From: Candidatus Ryanbacteria bacterium
Lineage (GTDB): Bacteria; Patescibacteriota; Minisyncoccia; Ryanbacterales; GWA2-47-10b
Assembly (NCBI GenBank): GCA_009691385.1
Contig: SICQ01000003.1
Span: 1-37,070 of the forward strand
Reading direction: 5' to 3'
Length of the DNA: 37,070 nucleotides
Part shown: in pieces, positions 5,255 through 31,298 of the stretch
Layout: each line of letters opens with the position of its first letter
Numbering within the stretch: the first letter of the stretch is position 1
Notes under the pieces: model-generated
Database searches by the model: none
Told to the model about the DNA's origin: nothing
Seen by the model: the letters and a program-made list of their open reading frames with translations, nothing else
Made by a program: the position numbers and the translations under genes

Positions 5255-5326
5255 GGCCCTATCGTCTAATGGTTAGGACAGCGCTCTTTCAAGGCGTAAA
5301 TCCGGGTTCGATTCCCGGTGGGGCCG
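5255..5326 (+). tRNA. tRNA-Glu(TTC)
   Basis: Acceptor stem GGCCCTA/TGGGGCC, anticodon loop CT-TTC-AA, T-loop GTTCGATTC; no encoded CCA. Confidence 0.95.
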
Positions 5327-5361
5327 CTTATAAAAATAAACGAGCGTGATACACTATATCT

Positions 5362-5619
5362 ATGAATATGGAAATACCAAAAAATCCCAATGAAGAGTTA
5401 GGCGAATCTCAGGAAGCCGCCCCTCGCCTTGAGGTGGGGGCAACTGTTCGCGTACCGAGAAACAATGGTGAATATATTGAGGAAGGCTGGAGAGTGCTCG
5501 GCTACAATCCAGACAACGATACCTACTCTGTGCTAAAAGTGACTAGTATAGAAGGTACCGACAATGCGAAATTTGAGAAAAAGGCGGTGCGGCGCGCGGA
5601 GCTGGAAAGTCTCAACTAA
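5362..5619 (+). CDS. Small acidic hypothetical protein (possible SH3/Tudor-like beta-barrel)
   Basis: 85 aa (LEVGATVRVPR...GWRVLGY...TYSVLK); TGnTACACT lies 6 nt before the ATG; located between two tRNAs. Confidence 0.7.
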   Translation: MNMEIPKNPNEELGESQEAAPRLEVGATVRVPRNNGEYIEEGWRVLGYNPDNDTYSVLKVTSIEGTDNAKFEKKAVRRAELESLN

Positions 5620-5646
5620 ATACTCTAGAATAAACGCGTTGTTTTT

Positions 5647-5718
5647 GCGCCCTTAGCTCAGTGGTAGAGCGTTTGCATGACACGCAAAAGGCCGGAAGTT
5701 CGATCCTTCCAGGGCGCA
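5647..5718 (+). tRNA. tRNA-Val(GAC)
   Basis: Acceptor stem GCGCCCT/AGGGCGC, D-arm TAGCTCAGTGGTAGAGC, anticodon arm TTTGC-AT-GAC-AC-GCAAA. Confidence 0.95.
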
Positions 5719-11003: not shown

Positions 11004-11075
11004 TGCCGCGGGGGTGAATCGAACACCCGACACGACGCTCTTCAGGCGTCTGCTCTACCACTGAGCTACCACGGC
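11004..11075 (-). tRNA. tRNA-Phe(GAA)
   Basis: Minus strand GCCGTGGTAGCTCAGTGGTAGAGCA-GACGC-CT-GAA-GA-GCGTC...GTTCGATTCACCCCCGCGGCA. Confidence 0.95.
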
Positions 11076-11118
11076 GTGCGTAGAAAGATAATAGCAAACT
11101 CCAGACAGATTTCAATTC

Positions 11119-11193
11119 TGGTGCGCGGTGAGGGATTCGAACCCCCGACCTTTGCTGTGTAAAAGCACTGCTCTACCACTGAGCTAACCGCGC
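11119..11193 (-). tRNA. tRNA-Val(TAC)
   Basis: Minus strand GCGCGGTTAGCTCAGTGGTAGAGC...TGCT-TT-TAC-AC-AGCA...GGTTCGAATCCCTCACCGCGCACCA. Confidence 0.95.
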
Positions 11194-11230
11194 ATTGTCC
11201 CATCATTCTACACATTTCTATAAAAAAATA

Positions 11231-11276
11231 AACCCCGCCCACAATCGCCATGATGGCGATTGTGGGTCTGGGGTTT
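11231..11276 (-). terminator. Long hairpin/terminator with TCA loop
   Basis: 13-bp perfect stem cccacaatcgcca-(tga)-tggcgattgtggg plus an outer aacccc/ggggtt stem; a T-run follows on the minus strand. Confidence 0.8.
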
Positions 11277-11285
11277 TGACCGCAT

Positions 11286-11702
11286 TTACGCGGCGGTTTC
11301 GGCCGCTCCTCCCGTCTGACGGGAGGTCGTCGCTAGACGACTCCTATGAGCGCGGCGAGCCTGCTCTTGCGCCTCACGCCCAGTCAGCACAGAAAAACCG
11401 AAGTGCTGAGCGAGACGAATTGCCTCAAGACGATTCTTGTTGTGCTCCTCGTAGTTGCTCAGATCCTGTGTGCGCTTGAGGCTAAGCGCCATGATGACGG
11501 TCTTGACCCGCGCGATAGCCTCCGCGCGACCAGTGTAAGCTGAGATGCCAAAAACTTCTTTGAATCTTTCTACCGCGGCAGCCTTATGGGCCGCCTCGCT
11601 GCGGGCACGGTCCTTGCGGGCACGAACCACTTGCAGCAGAAAGATGAAAAGAAATAACACGCAAAAACCGGCAACGACATACGCGAGCATATGCGAGTAC
11701 AT
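11286..11702 (-). CDS. Orphan single-TM protein
   Basis: 138 aa with an N-terminal TM helix; strong SD (AAGGAGGGAGG) before the ATG and its own sigma70-type promoter. Confidence 0.75.
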   Translation of the reverse strand: MYSHMLAYVVAGFCVLFLFIFLLQVVRARKDRARSEAAHKAAAVERFKEVFGISAYTGRAEAIARVKTVIMALSLKRTQDLSNYEEHNKNRLEAIRLAQHFGFSVLTGREAQEQARRAHRSRLATTSRQTGGAAETAA

Positions 11703-11757
11703 GGTATACCTCCCTCCTTGGAGTCTGTGAGCTAAAAGAACGAATCTCCTAGCTCAA

Positions 11758-11786
11758 ATAATATCAAATATAGCAGTTTTCGTCAA
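11758..11786 (-). promoter_or_regulatory. Sigma70-type promoter TTGACG-17-TATTAT
   Basis: -35 at 11781-11786, -10 at 11758-11763, 17-nt spacer. Confidence 0.7.
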
Positions 11787-11808
11787 GTACCCTGTTGAAA
11801 ACTCCTTG

Positions 11809-11880
11809 TGTCCTCGGCAGGAATCGAACCTGCACCACCTCCTTCGGAGGGAGATATTCTATCCATTGAACTACGAGGAC
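11809..11880 (-). tRNA. tRNA-Arg(CCG)
   Basis: Minus strand GTCCTCGTAGTTCAATGGATAGAATA-TCTCC-CT-CCG-AA-GGAGG...GGTTCGATTCCTGCCGAGGACA. Confidence 0.95.
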
Positions 11881-27136: not shown

Positions 27137-28807
27137 GTGGCATTTGACGAAGAAGAACAAAAAGAAAAGCTCAGTCAACTCCAACAAAAAGAGGAGGAAG
27201 ATTTAGCTCAACTGCTTGCTAAAAGATATAAAACTCCTTATCTCAACTTGGGGCGTGCCTTTATTGATCTTGATGCGCTTAAACTTGTACCGAGAGATCG
27301 CGCCGAGGCGGCTGGTCTTGCGGTCGTACAATCAACTGGCAAAAAACTACAAATCGCTGTCAAAAATCCAACACTCGATAAAGCAAAAGAAATAGTGACC
27401 GAACTACGCCGCGATGGCTATCAGCCACAACTTTTTTTGGTATCCATGCGAAGCTTAAAACATGCGTGGGTTCGCTACGAGGAAGCTGGCGAAGAAACCC
27501 CGAGCATTACCAATGTCATTGATATTTCAAAAGATAAGATTGTTGAATTCCGCCGTGAGATAAAAACGACAAAAGATTTTGAACGGATGTTGAGTGAAAA
27601 AATCTCACAGGGTAAAACCAAACGAGTGACTGACTTGCTTGATTATGTATTAGGAGGCGCATTTGAACTTGTCGTCTCTGATATCCATGTCGAACCGGCA
27701 GAAGATGCCGTACATATGCGCGTTCGTCTCGACGGTTTACTCCAAGATATCGTGAGCTTCTCACACGATATGCACAAAATGCTATTGGTGCGCATCAAGC
27801 TTGTCTGCGAACTCAAACTCAATATTCATGATAAATCACAAGACGGCCGCTTTACTATTCGCGCAGGTGAATCTGATGTGGAAGTGCGCGTCTCAACCCT
27901 CCCCGGCCCCTATGGCGAATCGATTGTCATGCGTATTTTGCACCCACGCGCCATTGAGACATCGTTTGAAGATCTCGGTATCCACCCCGTACTTCTTGAA
28001 CTTATTGAAAGAGAAATCCAAAAACCAAATGGCATGATCATCACCACCGGCCCTACCGGATCTGGTAAAACCACCACACTCTATGCGTTTATCAAAAAAC
28101 TCAATGAGCCGGGGGTGAAGATTATCACCATCGAAGATCCTATTGAATATCACATCAAAGGCATTACCCAGACGCAAATCAATAAAGAAGCTGGCTACAC
28201 CTTTGAGACAGGGCTCTCGGCAATCGTGCGTCAAGACCCTGATATCATTCTAGTCGGTGAGATGCGCAACCGCGAAACCGCGGAGATTGGCATGCAGGCG
28301 GCACTCACTGGTCACCTCGTATTCTCCACACTCCACACCAACAACGCACCTGGCACCATCCCCCGCCTTATTGATCTTGGTGTACCACCAAATATCATCG
28401 CGCCTGCCATCAACCTTGCTATCGCCCAGCGCCTCGTGCGTATCTTGTGTCCGCACTGCAAAAAACAAATGCCGCCGACACCCGAACAAATGACAACAAT
28501 AAAAAAACTGATGGAAACTTTGCCCCAAAAATATACGCGCCCGACGCTCGACAATATATCACTCTGTACACCGGGCGGATGTGGTGAGTGTAACTTTCTC
28601 GGATACAAAGGACGCCTCGCGGTCTTTGAAGCATTTTTAATTGATGACGATATGGAGCGCCTTATCTTAAAAAATCCTTCGGAAGCAGCGGTACGCGAGG
28701 CCGCAATCGCACAAGGAATGGCAACACTCGAACAAGATGGCATCTTAAAGCTCTTGCAGGGCATCACCTCGTGGGACGAACTCAACCGCATCGTCGGTTT
28801 AATCTAA
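27137..28807 (+). CDS. pilB: GspE/PulE/PilB family type IV pilus assembly ATPase
   Basis: Motifs SDIHVEP, QDGR, TGPTGSGKTTT, TIEDPIEY, RQDPDIILVGEMR, TGHLVFSTLHTN and a CxxC...CxxC Zn motif. Confidence 0.93.
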   Translation: MAFDEEEQKEKLSQLQQKEEEDLAQLLAKRYKTPYLNLGRAFIDLDALKLVPRDRAEAAGLAVVQSTGKKLQIAVKNPTLDKAKEIVTELRRDGYQPQLFLVSMRSLKHAWVRYEEAGEETPSITNVIDISKDKIVEFRREIKTTKDFERMLSEKISQGKTKRVTDLLDYVLGGAFELVVSDIHVEPAEDAVHMRVRLDGLLQDIVSFSHDMHKMLLVRIKLVCELKLNIHDKSQDGRFTIRAGESDVEVRVSTLPGPYGESIVMRILHPRAIETSFEDLGIHPVLLELIEREIQKPNGMIITTGPTGSGKTTTLYAFIKKLNEPGVKIITIEDPIEYHIKGITQTQINKEAGYTFETGLSAIVRQDPDIILVGEMRNRETAEIGMQAALTGHLVFSTLHTNNAPGTIPRLIDLGVPPNIIAPAINLAIAQRLVRILCPHCKKQMPPTPEQMTTIKKLMETLPQKYTRPTLDNISLCTPGGCGECNFLGYKGRLAVFEAFLIDDDMERLILKNPSEAAVREAAIAQGMATLEQDGILKLLQGITSWDELNRIVGLI

Positions 28808-28838
28808 TAGCTGACTACGACAACTACTTCACTAACCG

Positions 28839-29120
28839 CTATTTGAGCAGTCTGAATACCAGCGAAACGGTTTCTCTCCGTAATATCCAAAACACCCAAG
28901 TCAGAGCTGTAGCGAACGCCAAGTTAATGGCTGCGCCGAGATAATCGAATTCTATATTGGAACCGTTATATTCTCCCTTAAATATATAAGAATTCATTGG
29001 CCATCCATAGTCTCCCCTGCAGCCAGCAATACAATCAACTGGTGCTATGGTCGCAAAAGATGGGTAGACAAAAATACCAAATAAAATTAAGAATGTGACA
29101 AATGTTAAAATATATTTCAT
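28839..29120 (-). CDS. Small AT-rich membrane protein
   Basis: 93 aa with two hydrophobic segments around a loop containing CIAGC and YGWP; TGnTATAAT upstream. Confidence 0.65.
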   Translation of the reverse strand: MKYILTFVTFLILFGIFVYPSFATIAPVDCIAGCRGDYGWPMNSYIFKGEYNGSNIEFDYLGAAINLAFATALTWVFWILRRETVSLVFRLLK

Positions 29121-29201
29121 TTGAACTTTATTATATCACTTCCTCTCGAAAGCGAATAGGAAGCTTTCTCGCAAGAATCTCCAGACAATGTGCCCATGCG
29201 C

Positions 29202-29242
29202 ATAAATGAAATGGACGTCCGACATCCATTCATTTCATTTAT
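29202..29242. repeat. REP-like palindrome, left
   Basis: aatggacgtc-c-gacatccatt (29210-29230) nested in ataaatgaaatg...catttcatttat. Confidence 0.85.
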
Positions 29243-29884
29243 CTATTCCAGCAAGGACCCTTCGAGCTCTTTGGATAAAGATTTGCGTGCAATAATATCG
29301 GCGAGGGATGCTCGCGCAAAATCCTTGTACTCCCTCGCGTCCTGAAACTGCTTGAGTATTATTGCGGTGTTACATAATTTTTTATTTGTGTTGCCAATAT
29401 ATTCTTCCCAACTACTCTTGATAGCTTGCTTAATCCCGTGCACCTCATTGTTAAGATTAATATATGCGCTCACATGAAGTAGATATTCGTTTGAGACAAT
29501 GTGAGTTGAACGAAATTTACCAGCAAACAAAACGCCGCTTCTGTTGTGTCGGTGGTTAAAATATTTTGTGTAGCCACCAACCAATCTTTTAACAAATTCG
29601 CTTACGCCGTTTTCTACCTGTTGCCGCACGAGCAAATGAAAATGGTTTGGGTTAAGACAATAACAAACGATATCTACCAATCGACCTTTACGAGATGTTA
29701 CACGACCAAGTCTTCTGTCGAGCATGTATTCGTAAATACTTCCAACGGGCTCAATCGTGTTGAAAATCTCAACGCTCTTGAGAAATCTGTTGAGATCTTT
29801 TCCATCCATGAATATCTTCCTTTTATCAACCCCGCGATTGCAAATATGATAGTGCTCCCCAGCAGCAAAGATTGTCTTTCCCAT
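29243..29884 (-). CDS. REP-associated tyrosine (Y1/HUH) transposase
   Basis: YHICNRGVDKRKIF, HUH motif YCLNPNHFHLL, YTKYFN...RSGVLF..KF and the catalytic Tyr in AYINLN. Confidence 0.92.
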   Translation of the reverse strand: MGKTIFAAGEHYHICNRGVDKRKIFMDGKDLNRFLKSVEIFNTIEPVGSIYEYMLDRRLGRVTSRKGRLVDIVCYCLNPNHFHLLVRQQVENGVSEFVKRLVGGYTKYFNHRHNRSGVLFAGKFRSTHIVSNEYLLHVSAYINLNNEVHGIKQAIKSSWEEYIGNTNKKLCNTAIILKQFQDAREYKDFARASLADIIARKSLSKELEGSLLE

Positions 29885-29901
29885 GTCTTACATTGTACCA
29901 A

Positions 29902-29922
29902 AATGGACGTCGGACGTCCATT
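29902..29922. repeat. REP-like palindrome, right (abuts the transposase -10 box)
   Basis: Perfect aatggacgtc-g-gacgtccatt; TGgTACAAT on the minus strand at 29892-29900. Confidence 0.88.
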
Positions 29923-30027
29923 ACATTACATAAAAAACAAAAATGCCCGCAGGATGTTCCGTGCGAGCCTTGAGTGAGAAAATGCGGACTCACCCCTTCG
30001 GGCTACCGTTAAAGAGTCACTTATTCA

Positions 30028-30265
30028 CTTTCTCGCAAGAATCTCCAGACAATGTGCCCAGGCATGGGTGCCACAGGCTGAAGGCCTCTTCGAGGAGCAA
30101 TCGCGCCGACCCCTCCTCGCAGAGCGCAATATGCTTTAGAATAAAGCTACATTATGCGCTGTGAGGAAGGGGACCAGATTGTCCGTGTACTAAAAGAAGG
30201 CCCAGATAAGGTAAACCTCAATTGTCTGGAGATTTTCAGGAGAAAGCCTCTTCTGAAGAACAATG
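30028..30265 (-). ncRNA. Rod-shaped structured RNA, candidate 6S RNA
   Basis: End-to-end pairing on the minus strand: ctttctc/gagaaag, 14-bp aatctccagacaat/attgtctggagatt, a central bubble, ggcc-tctt/aagaggcc, ccccttcctc/gaggagggg, gcgca/tgcgc and gcttta/taaagc. TATAAT at 30272-30277 on the minus strand. The 6S identity is inferred. Confidence 0.55.
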
Positions 30266-30293
30266 ACCACTATTATAGCTAAAATATAGCCAC

Positions 30294-31298
30294 ATGTCAA
30301 TACCAGCCCAAAAACTCGATGACCGCTCGCTCGACAGCACCTTACGCCCCGCACGCTGGGACGAATACATTGGCCAGCACCAGATAAAAGAGAATTTGGC
30401 TATTTTGATCGAAGCTGCTAAAAAACGAGGTGAGCCGCTCGAACATTTACTCTTTTATGGCCCTGCCGGCCTTGGTAAAACGACACTCGCCCACCTTATC
30501 AAAAACGAAATGGGCGCCCAGATGAAAATAACTTCGGGCCCTGCGATCGAACGGGTGGGAGATCTTGCCTCAATCCTCACCAATCTTTCTTCGGGTGATA
30601 TTTTGTTTATTGATGAAGTACACCGGCTCAACAAACTTATCGAAGAGATCCTCTACCCCGCCATGGAAGCTCGGTCACTCGATATCATCATTGGCAAAGG
30701 GCCTGCTGCGCGCACCATACAGCTCGAGCTCCCCTCTTTTACTCTTATTGCGGCTACTACCCGCGTAGCACTCCTTTCCTCGCCGCTACGCTCACGCTTT
30801 TCGGGTGGCACCTTCCGACTCGAGTTTTATTCGGAAGATGATCTCAAAGAAATCTTACGCCGTTCGGCAAAACTTCTTGGTATCGCCGCCGAACAAGACG
30901 CGCTCACTGAAATCGCCAAGCGAAGCAGGTTTACACCGCGTGTTGCCAACCACCTTCTCAAGCGTTGTCGTGATGTAGCAGAAGTCAGGGGTGACGGTGT
31001 CATCACTGATAGAATCGCGCGTATGGCGCTCGAACTTCTTGAAATTGACGAAGTAGGACTATCGTCAGAAGATAGACGCATACTCGATATATTGATAGAA
31101 AAATTTGCTGGTGGGCCCGTAGGGGTCGCGACACTCGCCGCCGCATCATCAGAAGAAGTGAGTACTATCGAGGAGATCCATGAACCGTATCTCATGCGTC
31201 TTGGTTTTATTGAACGAACACCACGAGGTAGGATGGCTACGCGTCGCGCCTATGAGCACCTAGGTGCTACGCCACCCGCAACCCTTTTCAATACATGA
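30294..31298 (+). CDS. ruvB: Holliday junction branch migration ATPase B
   Basis: Motifs LRP...[40 protein letters not shown] and EPYL...RTPRGR. Confidence 0.97.

Follow-up and report, generated by a model that had tools for sequence, protein, structure and literature searches.

A hairpin-flanked HUH transposase unit bracketed by copies of a gene end, within a strain-level insertion at a structured RNA gene of Candidatus Ryanbacteria

A DNA stretch of 37,070 nucleotides (nt) from Candidatus Ryanbacteria (contig SICQ01000003.1), referred to here as the window, contains a gene for a Y1 HUH transposase with a hairpin on either side, situated at the 3' end of a gene for a structured RNA and between two direct copies of the last 33 nt of that gene. 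In the current analysis we have identified the 1220-nt block that holds this unit as a strain-level insertion polymorphism, since an allele without the block is present in a near-identical strain in both of two sequencing runs, X1 and X2. Homologous units of sister genera are also found between repeats of neighbouring gene ends, and these loci show a recurrent solution: the gene end displaced by an accessory module, which is most commonly a hairpin-flanked HUH transposase, is supplied anew by a copy that the module brings along. The genome concerned (G000) is a metagenome bin of 634 kb in 46 contigs, 85% complete, and every genome compared with it is likewise a metagenome bin.

Repeat finding in the window gives a perfect 33-nt direct repeat at 29164-29196 (distal copy) and 30028-30060 (proximal copy) with a spacing of 864, just as an earlier note on this DNA had reported. 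The pair can be extended to 36 nt with 1 mismatch (29164-29199 and 30028-30063), the first 33 nt being identical. Self-BLAST of the 634-kb genome yields a total of 7 nearby direct-repeat pairs (at least 25 nt long and 150-4000 nt apart), which indicates that direct repeats of this sort are rare in it. The interval was also described correctly as comprising a Y1 transposase, two palindromes and a spacer: one open reading frame (ORF) of 213 amino acids (aa) with a Pfam match is encoded on the minus strand (29243-29884), and it is accompanied by two related palindromes, similar to repetitive extragenic palindromes (REPs), and by a spacer of 97 nt. The upstream or left-end (LE) palindrome, AAATGGACGTCGGACGTCCATT, was located by repeat finding at 29901-29930. 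The downstream or right-end (RE) palindrome has extended arms and occupies 29202-29242, its outer 12-nt arms (29202-29213 and 29231-29242) being 100% complementary. On the minus strand the distal repeat copy begins 5 nt behind this extended palindrome.

The gene from which the repeat is derived encodes a conserved structured RNA of about 220 nt (30026-30248, minus strand), recognised by folding and by covariation in 10 genomes. The fold computed for the minus strand (about 30248-30026) has a minimum free energy of -102.8 kcal/mol with z = -6.8, and the alignment of the 10 genomes has 70 consensus pairs, 22 of them with compensatory changes. Many of the G-U pairs are valid only on the minus strand and become mismatches if read from the other one, which assigns the RNA to the minus strand. 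A rod-shaped RNA had been proposed at this site; the RNA is real and supported by covariation on the minus strand, but its shape is that of a four-way junction and no plain rod, with a long closing helix (P1), a small hairpin (P2), a long helix with a variable tip (P3) and a further hairpin (P4). The 33-nt repeat corresponds to the whole 3' arm of P1 together with five bases of the last hairpin.

BLAST identifies this RNA in all 10 genomes of the family, invariably between ruvB and the gene of a PilB-like type II/IV secretion ATPase, the flanking core genes assigned in the window by Pfam scan (30294-31298 and 27137-28807 respectively, both on the plus strand). When 401 genomes of the class were searched, a 30-nt core motif of the RNA was found in all 10 genomes of the family (f1), in 1 of 3 genomes of a sister family (f4) and in 0 of the other 388. 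The window has no relevant match in Rfam 15 (including 6S, SRP, tmRNA and RNase P) at gathering score or at E up to 10, and six homologous RNA loci have none at E up to 1; the RNA is an unclassified, lineage-restricted structured RNA. A promoter-like site for it, TTGACA-17 nt-TATAAT (30272-30300, minus strand), agrees with the consensus at 12 of 12 positions and is a consensus match only.

Empty alleles of the locus were sought and found, in three congeners (G007, G008 and G009) as well as in the near-identical strain. In 3 of 3 congeners the pilB stop codon is followed by AAATAAAAAAG (G007, G009) or AAATAAAAAAAA (G008) and then by the 3' arm of the RNA. The closing helix leads in the empty alleles into GC and a U-tract, a terminator-like end situated 10-12 nt from the pilB stop (11-12 nt in the three congeners). 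Comparison of the alleles delimits the polymorphic block as 28808-30027 (1220 nt), in whose place the empty alleles have AAATAAAAAG or AAATAAAAAAG. The insertion suggested earlier is supported by the empty sites, but the inserted DNA extends beyond the repeat pair and comprises an orphan reading frame (ORF93), the distal repeat, the transposase unit and the terminator-bearing spacer. ORF93 (93 aa; 28839-29120, minus strand) lies outside the repeat pair, has a hydrophobic N-terminus and belongs to no Pfam or NCBIfam family. No homologue of it has been identified in 21 other genomes of the order, barring one chance-level match of 16.8 bits, and the part of the block that contains it (28808-29165) shows no similarity to the homologous loci compared or to any other part of its own genome.

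The runs X1 and X2 are public and belong to one study, possibly the source of the assembly, and a third run (X3) belongs to another study; all were considered as unitigs and contigs with k=31. In X1 and X2 a contig, of 11,168 nt in X2, joins 28807 to 30028 via AAATAAAAAG with depths of 11.1 and 16.3 respectively. Unitigs of the filled allele (28762-29196, 29167-29849 and 29438-30069) occur beside this empty contig, and a unitig of X3 (29938-30114) covers the junction of spacer and RNA. Unitigs common to both alleles end at 28791 and begin again at 30040, and have 0 differences from the window over 3.9 kb each. These break points suggest that the two alleles differ only within 28792-30039, an interval in which the 1220-nt block is preceded by the terminal 16 nt of pilB and followed by the first 12 nt of the proximal repeat; three pilB differences between the alleles fall somewhere in 28762-28807. 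As the borders of the block lie in homologous DNA, near-identical strains can gain or lose it, with both repeat copies, through ordinary recombination of the flanking DNA. The order in which the transposase follows the distal repeat is that of the submitted assembly, and the k=31 unitigs break at the 33-nt repeat. No circle was seen among these unitigs, in which a circle, an excised form and the integrated form would have all their 31-mers across the repeat in common. The ORF93 segment has a unitig depth of 4.1 in X1, as compared with 7.0 for the transposase segment, possibly reflecting extra copies of the unit or holes left by filtering. In X2 the ORF93 segment is uncovered and 29438-30069 is covered at 7.1, gaps in the cover of X2 and X3 being no evidence.

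The empty alleles also permit the two repeat copies to be distinguished. The distal copy is followed by GC and preceded on the plus strand by three extra bases, AAG, exactly as in the empty alleles, and it can pair further with the 5' arm of the RNA, as had been observed in the earlier note; the proximal copy has neither. The distal copy (29164-29196, minus strand) represents an orphaned 3' arm of P1 and, from the repeat and the comparison with empty alleles, is probably the resident original end, and the proximal copy (30028-30060, minus strand), which is joined to the body of the RNA in the alignment, is read as borne by the insert. A hairpin CTTCCT...AGGAAG, read from the sequence at 29139-29163 (minus strand), lies directly behind the distal copy. 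The 97-nt spacer (29931-30027, minus strand) appears from its sequence and folding to contain two hairpins, the second of which (29945-29969) is followed by AUUUUUGUUUUUU and resembles a terminator. It lies outside the listing of the terminator scan, which was limited to loops of 3-8. This hairpin with its AUUUUUGUUUUUU may end the RNA transcript in place of the lost native U-tract, so that the earlier suggestion of an original end downstream and of an insert which restores the RNA with a copy of that end agrees with both the allele comparison and the folding. The spacer region (29925-30030) has no similarity in the homologous loci compared or elsewhere in its own genome.

The transposase matches the Pfam family PF01797 (Y1_Tnp) with 33.4 bits (cut-off 23, E 5.5e-8), and the NCBIfam equivalog of REP-associated tyrosine transposases (RAYTs), NF047646, with 24.9 bits, under the cut-off of 80. 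All 8 aligned homologues retain the motif residues H81 and H83 (HUH) and Y141, of which Y141 would from its position be the catalytic nucleophile. The predicted fold (pLDDT 82.6) has 4ER8, the REP-associated transposase of E. coli, as its best match in PDB (Foldseek E 1.8e-5), followed by the TnpA proteins of IS608 and ISDra2 among 25 matches at E up to 0.001. With about 210 aa the protein compares with 125-165 residues in the matched solved Y1 transposases, and the structure model predicts a long C-terminal helix at residues 183-212. A consensus scan places a promoter-like site of the transposase (29892-29920, minus strand) across the LE palindrome, with the -35 hexamer TGGACG within the palindrome, an arrangement that would permit the enzyme to regulate itself through binding of its own hairpin.

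The cognate palindrome occurs in its own genome only at the unit, in two copies, the 20 other matches listed (1-2 mismatches) being unlike the palindrome. Sister genomes that hold the gene have about 3-7 solo palindromes, compared with 0-1 in controls without the gene, where the single match is doubtful. As the palindrome of the window is confined to the unit and solo copies are few in the sisters, the unit is RAYT-like with almost no dispersed REPs. The number of transposase genes is 1 in its own genome, 4, 7 and 5 in G002, G003 and G005 and 0 in four others, so that up to 7 divergent copies occur per 0.8-Mb genome in a patchy distribution. More than 586 candidate stretches with relatives were obtained from the genome_contigs collection and 473 from metagenome_contigs, and the named records are almost all metagenome-assembled genomes of Patescibacteria, a few carrying other automatic labels. 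No relative more than 61% identical was found in these two collections (best 57% and 61% respectively), which leaves no second insertion site of the element for comparison; a near-identical second copy of the unit was found neither in its own genome nor in the collections of relatives.

The units are regular in their build. Hairpins are present on both sides in 142 of the 164 loci with enough flank, the two being alike in 114 of those pairs, and by median the upstream hairpin ends 14 nt before the start codon and the downstream hairpin begins 1 nt after the stop. In a number of homologues (L017 1671-1693, L007 2483-2501, and also L018, L024, L025, L026 and L027) a third copy of the unit's own palindrome lies inside the reading frame, where it encodes about 7 residues in what we read as one of two variable loops; the transposase gene of the window has no such copy. 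In L027 (470-499; contig C9 of G002) a gene read as murC also has within its reading frame a REP palindrome, of a kind found flanking a different transposase of that genome.

Of the 16 loci of sister genera that could be used, 6 have flanking repeats 35 nt or longer that lie outside their hairpins, namely L017 (73 nt, 85%), L019 (44 nt, 86%), L024 (63 nt, 79%), L025 (88-93 nt, 90-92%), L027 (47 nt, 91%) and L030 (39 nt, 95%), two further loci (L023, L026) being left out of the count as cut by contig ends. By the script criterion 10 of 72 usable loci in a wider genome set have such a repeat, but six or seven of the ten prove by eye to be extended hairpins only, which leaves L066, L091, L100 and perhaps L088. 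In a metagenome set 5 of 52 loci pass by script (L126, L129, L130, L141, L200). L130 has the same coordinates and repeats as L129, and the repeats of L200 were read as extended hairpins; 4 of 52 were left by eye. Control ORFs of 150-300 aa taken from the loci of the wider genome set, in more distant Patescibacteria, have a flanking repeat in 4 of 183 cases. The expectation that the flanks of homologous transposases carry repeats of gene ends is thus borne out in sister genera (6/16 against 4/183), the excess being strong in the family of the window and weak elsewhere (about 3-4/72 and 4/52). Most homologous units are without flanking gene-end repeats. The loci include kin and are not independent, and no P-value is attached to these counts.

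What is repeated belongs to the ends of genes next to the unit. The 3' end is involved in the case of SMC (L017, L126), RNase J (L025) and an ABC-2 permease (L030), and in L024 the repeat comprises sequence internal to a gene that was read by eye as miaA, close to its 3' end. Starts of genes are repeated as well, namely that of a gene read by eye as trpS (L019, L141 and, as an orphan, L025) and that of murC, also by eye (L027). The same ends have been hit more than once, the trpS start in L019, L025 and L141, the SMC end in L017 and L126 and the ABC-2 permease end in L030 and in contig C10 of the genome studied here. Transposases that share a gene end have 52-61% identity, which is no closer than random pairs, and are not sisters in the tree. 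No shared cleavage or target motif was seen by eye at the repeat borders. Common ancestry with a unit in the same RNA-pilB spacer of G005 (L007/L022) was considered for the window and rejected, the two transposases being 56% identical and not sisters and the unit of G005 having another position and no repeat. A closely related pair is provided by L185 (3921-4688) and L141 (3451-5051), whose transposases are 87% identical and lie in the same spacer between RNase J and trpS; L185 is without repeat, and in L141 the trpS start is repeated over 68 nt (94%), an ORF of 103 aa and about 290 nt being additional. Comparison of the two should reveal the manner in which such a repeat is formed.

The differences between the copies bear on their origin. 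Copies in homologous loci are 77-95% identical. The numbers of differing codons in three coding pairs are 17, 9 and 8, and the residue changes among them are 3, 2 and 0 respectively; in L019, read by eye, 5 codons differ with 1 residue change. The differences are mostly synonymous, as would not be expected of a dead copy decaying in place, and for the greater part of their divergence both copies would have served as functional gene ends in separate lineages. In C10 the orphan copy and the DNA behind it match the arrangement of G007, and the copy attached to the gene ends as in G008 and G009. Of the three SMC-end copies in L017 the most distal (about 35 nt) matches G006 both in type and in being contiguous with the next gene, the two proximal ones being of a type other than that of G006. 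Wherever empty alleles could be compared (C10, L017 and the window), the sequences indicate that the insert brought the gene-completing copy and orphaned the resident end. The two copies of the window are identical, so the argument for an imported patch rests there on the relatives and on the three extra bases. The copies of C10 form a mosaic, with the first ~100 nt identical and 13 differences in the last 67 nt.

Geometry was measured by script for 13 repeat cases, in 10 of which a downstream hairpin was found. In 7 of the 10 the second copy begins -2 to 33 nt behind that hairpin (13 in the window, or 5 from the extended palindrome) and the first copy ends 2-434 nt before the upstream hairpin; in the three cases where no downstream hairpin was found the second copy begins 18-31 nt after the stop codon. 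Both repeat borders hug the unit, the downstream border more tightly.

Modules without a transposase have also been identified between such repeats. In C10 (1192-2181, locus L114) a 200-aa ORF of no Pfam family lies between the two copies of a 167-nt direct repeat (92%), which represents the 3' terminus of an ABC-2 permease gene; the orphan copy begins directly behind the palindrome GGCTGATTATCAGCC, G007 serves as an empty site for this module, and the same permease end is duplicated around a membrane ORF and a RAYT in G003 (L030). In contig C4 of the same genome (6731-7535; locus L115, 1732-2536) a 69-nt non-coding repeat (83%) surrounds a 93-aa ORF with cysteine pairs and no Pfam family. L017 has a 373-aa ORF between its second and third SMC-end copies. 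The RNase J 3' end is present in L025 (2190-2880, contig C63 of G005) as an orphan copy and as a partial one, which enclose a hicB-hicA pair, and a solo REP follows immediately on the stop codon of the orphan; G006 is empty there, with about 50 nt between RNase J and trpS. L238 contains a 105-aa ORF and a solo REP bracketed by a 37-nt repeat. These modules indicate that a transposase gene in cis is unnecessary for the architecture.

We tentatively favour an account in which the block arose by homology-guided insertion with duplication, the transposase possibly assisting and host recombination doing the rest. A compact hairpin-transposase-hairpin unit would be placed 33 nt inside the 3' end of the RNA gene and would bring a replacement copy of the last 33 nt of the RNA and a terminator of its own, so that the RNA stays complete and the resident 3' arm is orphaned behind the downstream hairpin. 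The DNA carrying the unit and a patch of the target end may join the chromosome by homologous pairing on the patch side, with the other junction forming beside the downstream hairpin, either from a small circle through a single crossover or through a one-ended strand transfer whose left side is resolved by recombination. Y1 transposases such as those of IS608 and ISDra2 cut single strands beside hairpins and make circles. The transposase would most plausibly make the hairpin-side end or the circle, sometimes with a neighbouring gene end, and host recombination would use the patch to integrate it; both the intermediate, whether circular or one-ended, and any catalytic part played by the transposase are putative. 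The finished block could then pass between close strains via ordinary flank recombination. A single crossover between a circle and the chromosome explains the unrelated genes, the variable lengths, the tandem stacking, the mosaic of C10 and the mostly synonymous differences, but taken alone it leaves unexplained the frequent transposase cargo in the family and the junctions at hairpins. According to a portion of PMC3240628, single crossover of circular DNA in E. coli gives 109-950-bp duplications of homology, and one-sided illegitimate recombination gives deletions. Homology-facilitated illegitimate recombination was accordingly rejected as the source of the repeats, as on the same portion of that paper it gives deletions and not duplications.

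A number of observations weigh against the favoured account. The wider samples are only slightly above the controls. In 3 of the 13 measured cases (L024, L025, L100) the second copy lies 100-472 nt from the stop codon, although the orphan trpS start of L025 begins 5 nt behind a hairpin despite this exception, and the functional copy is not tied to the orientation of the transposase (L024, L027). The same repeat architecture occurs around modules that have no RAYT or REP (C10, C4 and the 373-aa ORF of L017). The identical copies of the window fit an in-situ duplication at this one locus. The lack of a relative above 61% identity and the restriction of the REP palindrome to its own unit give no sign of recent transposition here.

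Among the alternatives, an entirely host-driven origin, in which circularised DNA from related strains carrying cargo and a gene end integrates by a Campbell-type single crossover with the transposase as a passenger and the commonest accessory cargo, is considered somewhat unlikely. It agrees with the repeat-flanked modules devoid of RAYT and REP and with the hicAB module between RNase J end copies (though this has a solo REP at one border), with the tandem stacking of three SMC-end copies in L017, the mosaic of C10, the location of repeats at unrelated genes with no common motif and the position of the block borders within homologous flanks, and duplications by single crossover have an experimental precedent in the portion of PMC3240628 cited above. 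It does not account for the over-representation of RAYT units, which have repeats in 6 of 16 sister-genus loci besides the window as compared with 3 repeat-flanked modules in the whole of the genome studied, nor for the manner in which both repeat copies hug the hairpins or for the solo REP that adjoins the repeat junctions in L238 and L025, and it is silent on how non-replicating circles form and travel. A hybrid route for the REP/RAYT units of Patescibacteria, which we regard as unlikely, would have the HUH transposase cut at the downstream hairpin and release or circularise a piece that includes the neighbouring gene end; this patch would then serve as an address with which host recombination inserts the piece some dozens of bases inside the same gene of another genome, the gene being kept intact. 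Such a route, if true, would constitute a homology-addressed, gene-restoring transposition without an integrase, and would account for the repeated use of the trpS start, the SMC end, the ABC-2 permease end and the end of this RNA.

An in-situ origin, by ordinary IS200-like transposition with a long target duplication or by a template switch of replication at the hairpins that copied 33 nt, fits the 33/33 identity of the copies in the window, their closeness to hairpins and the G which both have where all empty alleles have A (30039 in the proximal copy and the matching distal position). It is nevertheless improbable in view of the 77-95% identity in homologous loci, of the 34 differing codons with 5 residue changes in the three coding pairs, unlike the decay of a dead copy, and of the match of the two copies to alleles of different lineages in C10 and L017; moreover IS200/IS605 transposition is not known to involve target duplication. 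The repeats could also be the attL and attR of an element integrated by a recombinase of the tyrosine or serine type, acting in trans or no longer present. A direct repeat at an RNA 3' end, restoration of the gene end, longer imperfect repeats and tandem arrays are classic for integrase elements, of which phage 21 and e14 in icd are reportedly examples. We consider this very improbable, as no recombinase is found among the 4 ORFs of the locus and 31 further long ORFs of the window (Pfam, E up to 1e-5), the 85%-complete genome has one PF00589 match, at the end of another contig, the bracketed intervals are only 0.5-1.2 kb and the repeats, which occur at many genes unrelated to one another, share no core sequence. 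The earlier proposal of site-specific integration without an integrase is therefore retained in part: the 37-kb window encodes no integrase, but insertion is not site-specific in the att sense, the repeats occurring at unrelated genes with no common sequence. Least probable of all is an assembly artefact, in which assembly would have misplaced into the chromosome an independent 864-nt element that has 33 nt in common with the RNA end. Such an error would be compatible with the breaking of the k=31 unitigs at the repeat, none of which bridges 29196/29197 with at least 31 letters on both sides, and with the unequal X1 depth of the ORF93 and transposase segments. Unitigs without differences nevertheless bridge pilB into the block (28762-29196) and the spacer into the RNA (29438-30069 in X2, 29938-30114 in X3), the same architecture is present in many independent assemblies and modern assemblers use words longer than 33.

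The remainder of the window encodes mainly housekeeping functions, including a ClpB-like ATPase, uppS, tsaD, a class I aminoacyl-tRNA synthetase, ruvA, uvrB, polA, ruvB, yebC, ruvC, a penicillin-binding protein and dnaN. Five tRNA genes occur in two groups (5255-5718 and 11004-11880).

Genomes of Patescibacteria are very small and tightly packed, as exemplified by the 10-12 nt between the pilB stop and the RNA end, and in such packing an insert would survive only by mending the damage it causes. Should the transposase contribute to producing the inserted pieces, the homology-guided insertion favoured here would represent a new route by which an HUH enzyme places DNA at a selected site and, if true, would provide a handle on gene exchange among bacteria that are so far mostly uncultured. 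If the transposase is uninvolved, homology-driven gene gain still has its hot spots at these loci, which in addition bring to light a structured RNA of restricted lineage that has a perfect consensus promoter-like site and no Rfam match. The literature searched contains no RAYT-like or IS200-like units with gene-end repeats and no such units in Patescibacteria, supplements being outside the search and a prior description possible; a term search in part of PMC6006769 likewise gave no RAYT units bracketed by gene-end repeats.

In comparison with known systems the protein appears, from its modelled fold and its flanking palindromes, to be a divergent Y1 HUH transposase nearest to RAYTs. With the RAYT TnpA_REP (4ER8) it shares the Y1 HUH fold, the invariant HUH and tyrosine motifs, palindromes of its own on both sides and the restriction of a few solo palindromes to genomes with the cognate gene. 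It differs in scoring below the NCBIfam cut-off, in its length of about 210 aa with a long C-terminal helix, in REPs that are barely dispersed (0 solo copies in its own genome and about 3-7 in sister genomes) and in the gene-end repeats that bracket some of the units. RAYTs are described, in a part of Bertels et al. 2017, as present in single copy per genome and vertically inherited, whereas the family of the window is multi-copy and patchy, its gene tree does not follow the sites and copies at the same site are not sisters.

The enzyme fold and the subterminal hairpins at both ends are likewise shared with IS200/IS605 elements (TnpA of IS608 and ISDra2). IS200 has a terminator-like hairpin upstream of the transposase gene, as has the unit described here. 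The intermediates of IS200/IS605 elements are single-stranded circles, and their transposition is not known to make a target duplication. The unit of the window differs from them in having no near-identical copies and no tnpB, in palindromes that are perfect and alike at both ends and in the presence of the 33-nt repeat. It thus departs from RAYTs in three features (profile cut-off, dispersed REPs, single vertical copy) and from IS200/IS605 elements in two (identical copies, absence of duplication).

Integrase elements that restore the 3' ends of tRNA, tmRNA or protein genes resemble these loci in carrying a surrogate gene end and orphaning the original one downstream, in their imperfect repeats and in tandem modules each followed by an end copy. 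The present loci are distinguished from them by the absence of an integrase, by inserts of 0.5-1.2 kb, by the lack of a common core and by the use of both 5' starts and 3' ends. Minimal mobile elements are exchanged by flanking homology and are not known to carry flanking repeats; they share with the present loci the occurrence of different cassettes between the same conserved genes in related strains and block borders that lie in homologous flanks. The Campbell-type single crossover, as characterised in the portion of PMC3240628 referred to above, shares with them the duplication of a homologous patch. From both of these the loci described here are set apart by junctions that hug the hairpins of the transposase and by the over-representation of transposase units.

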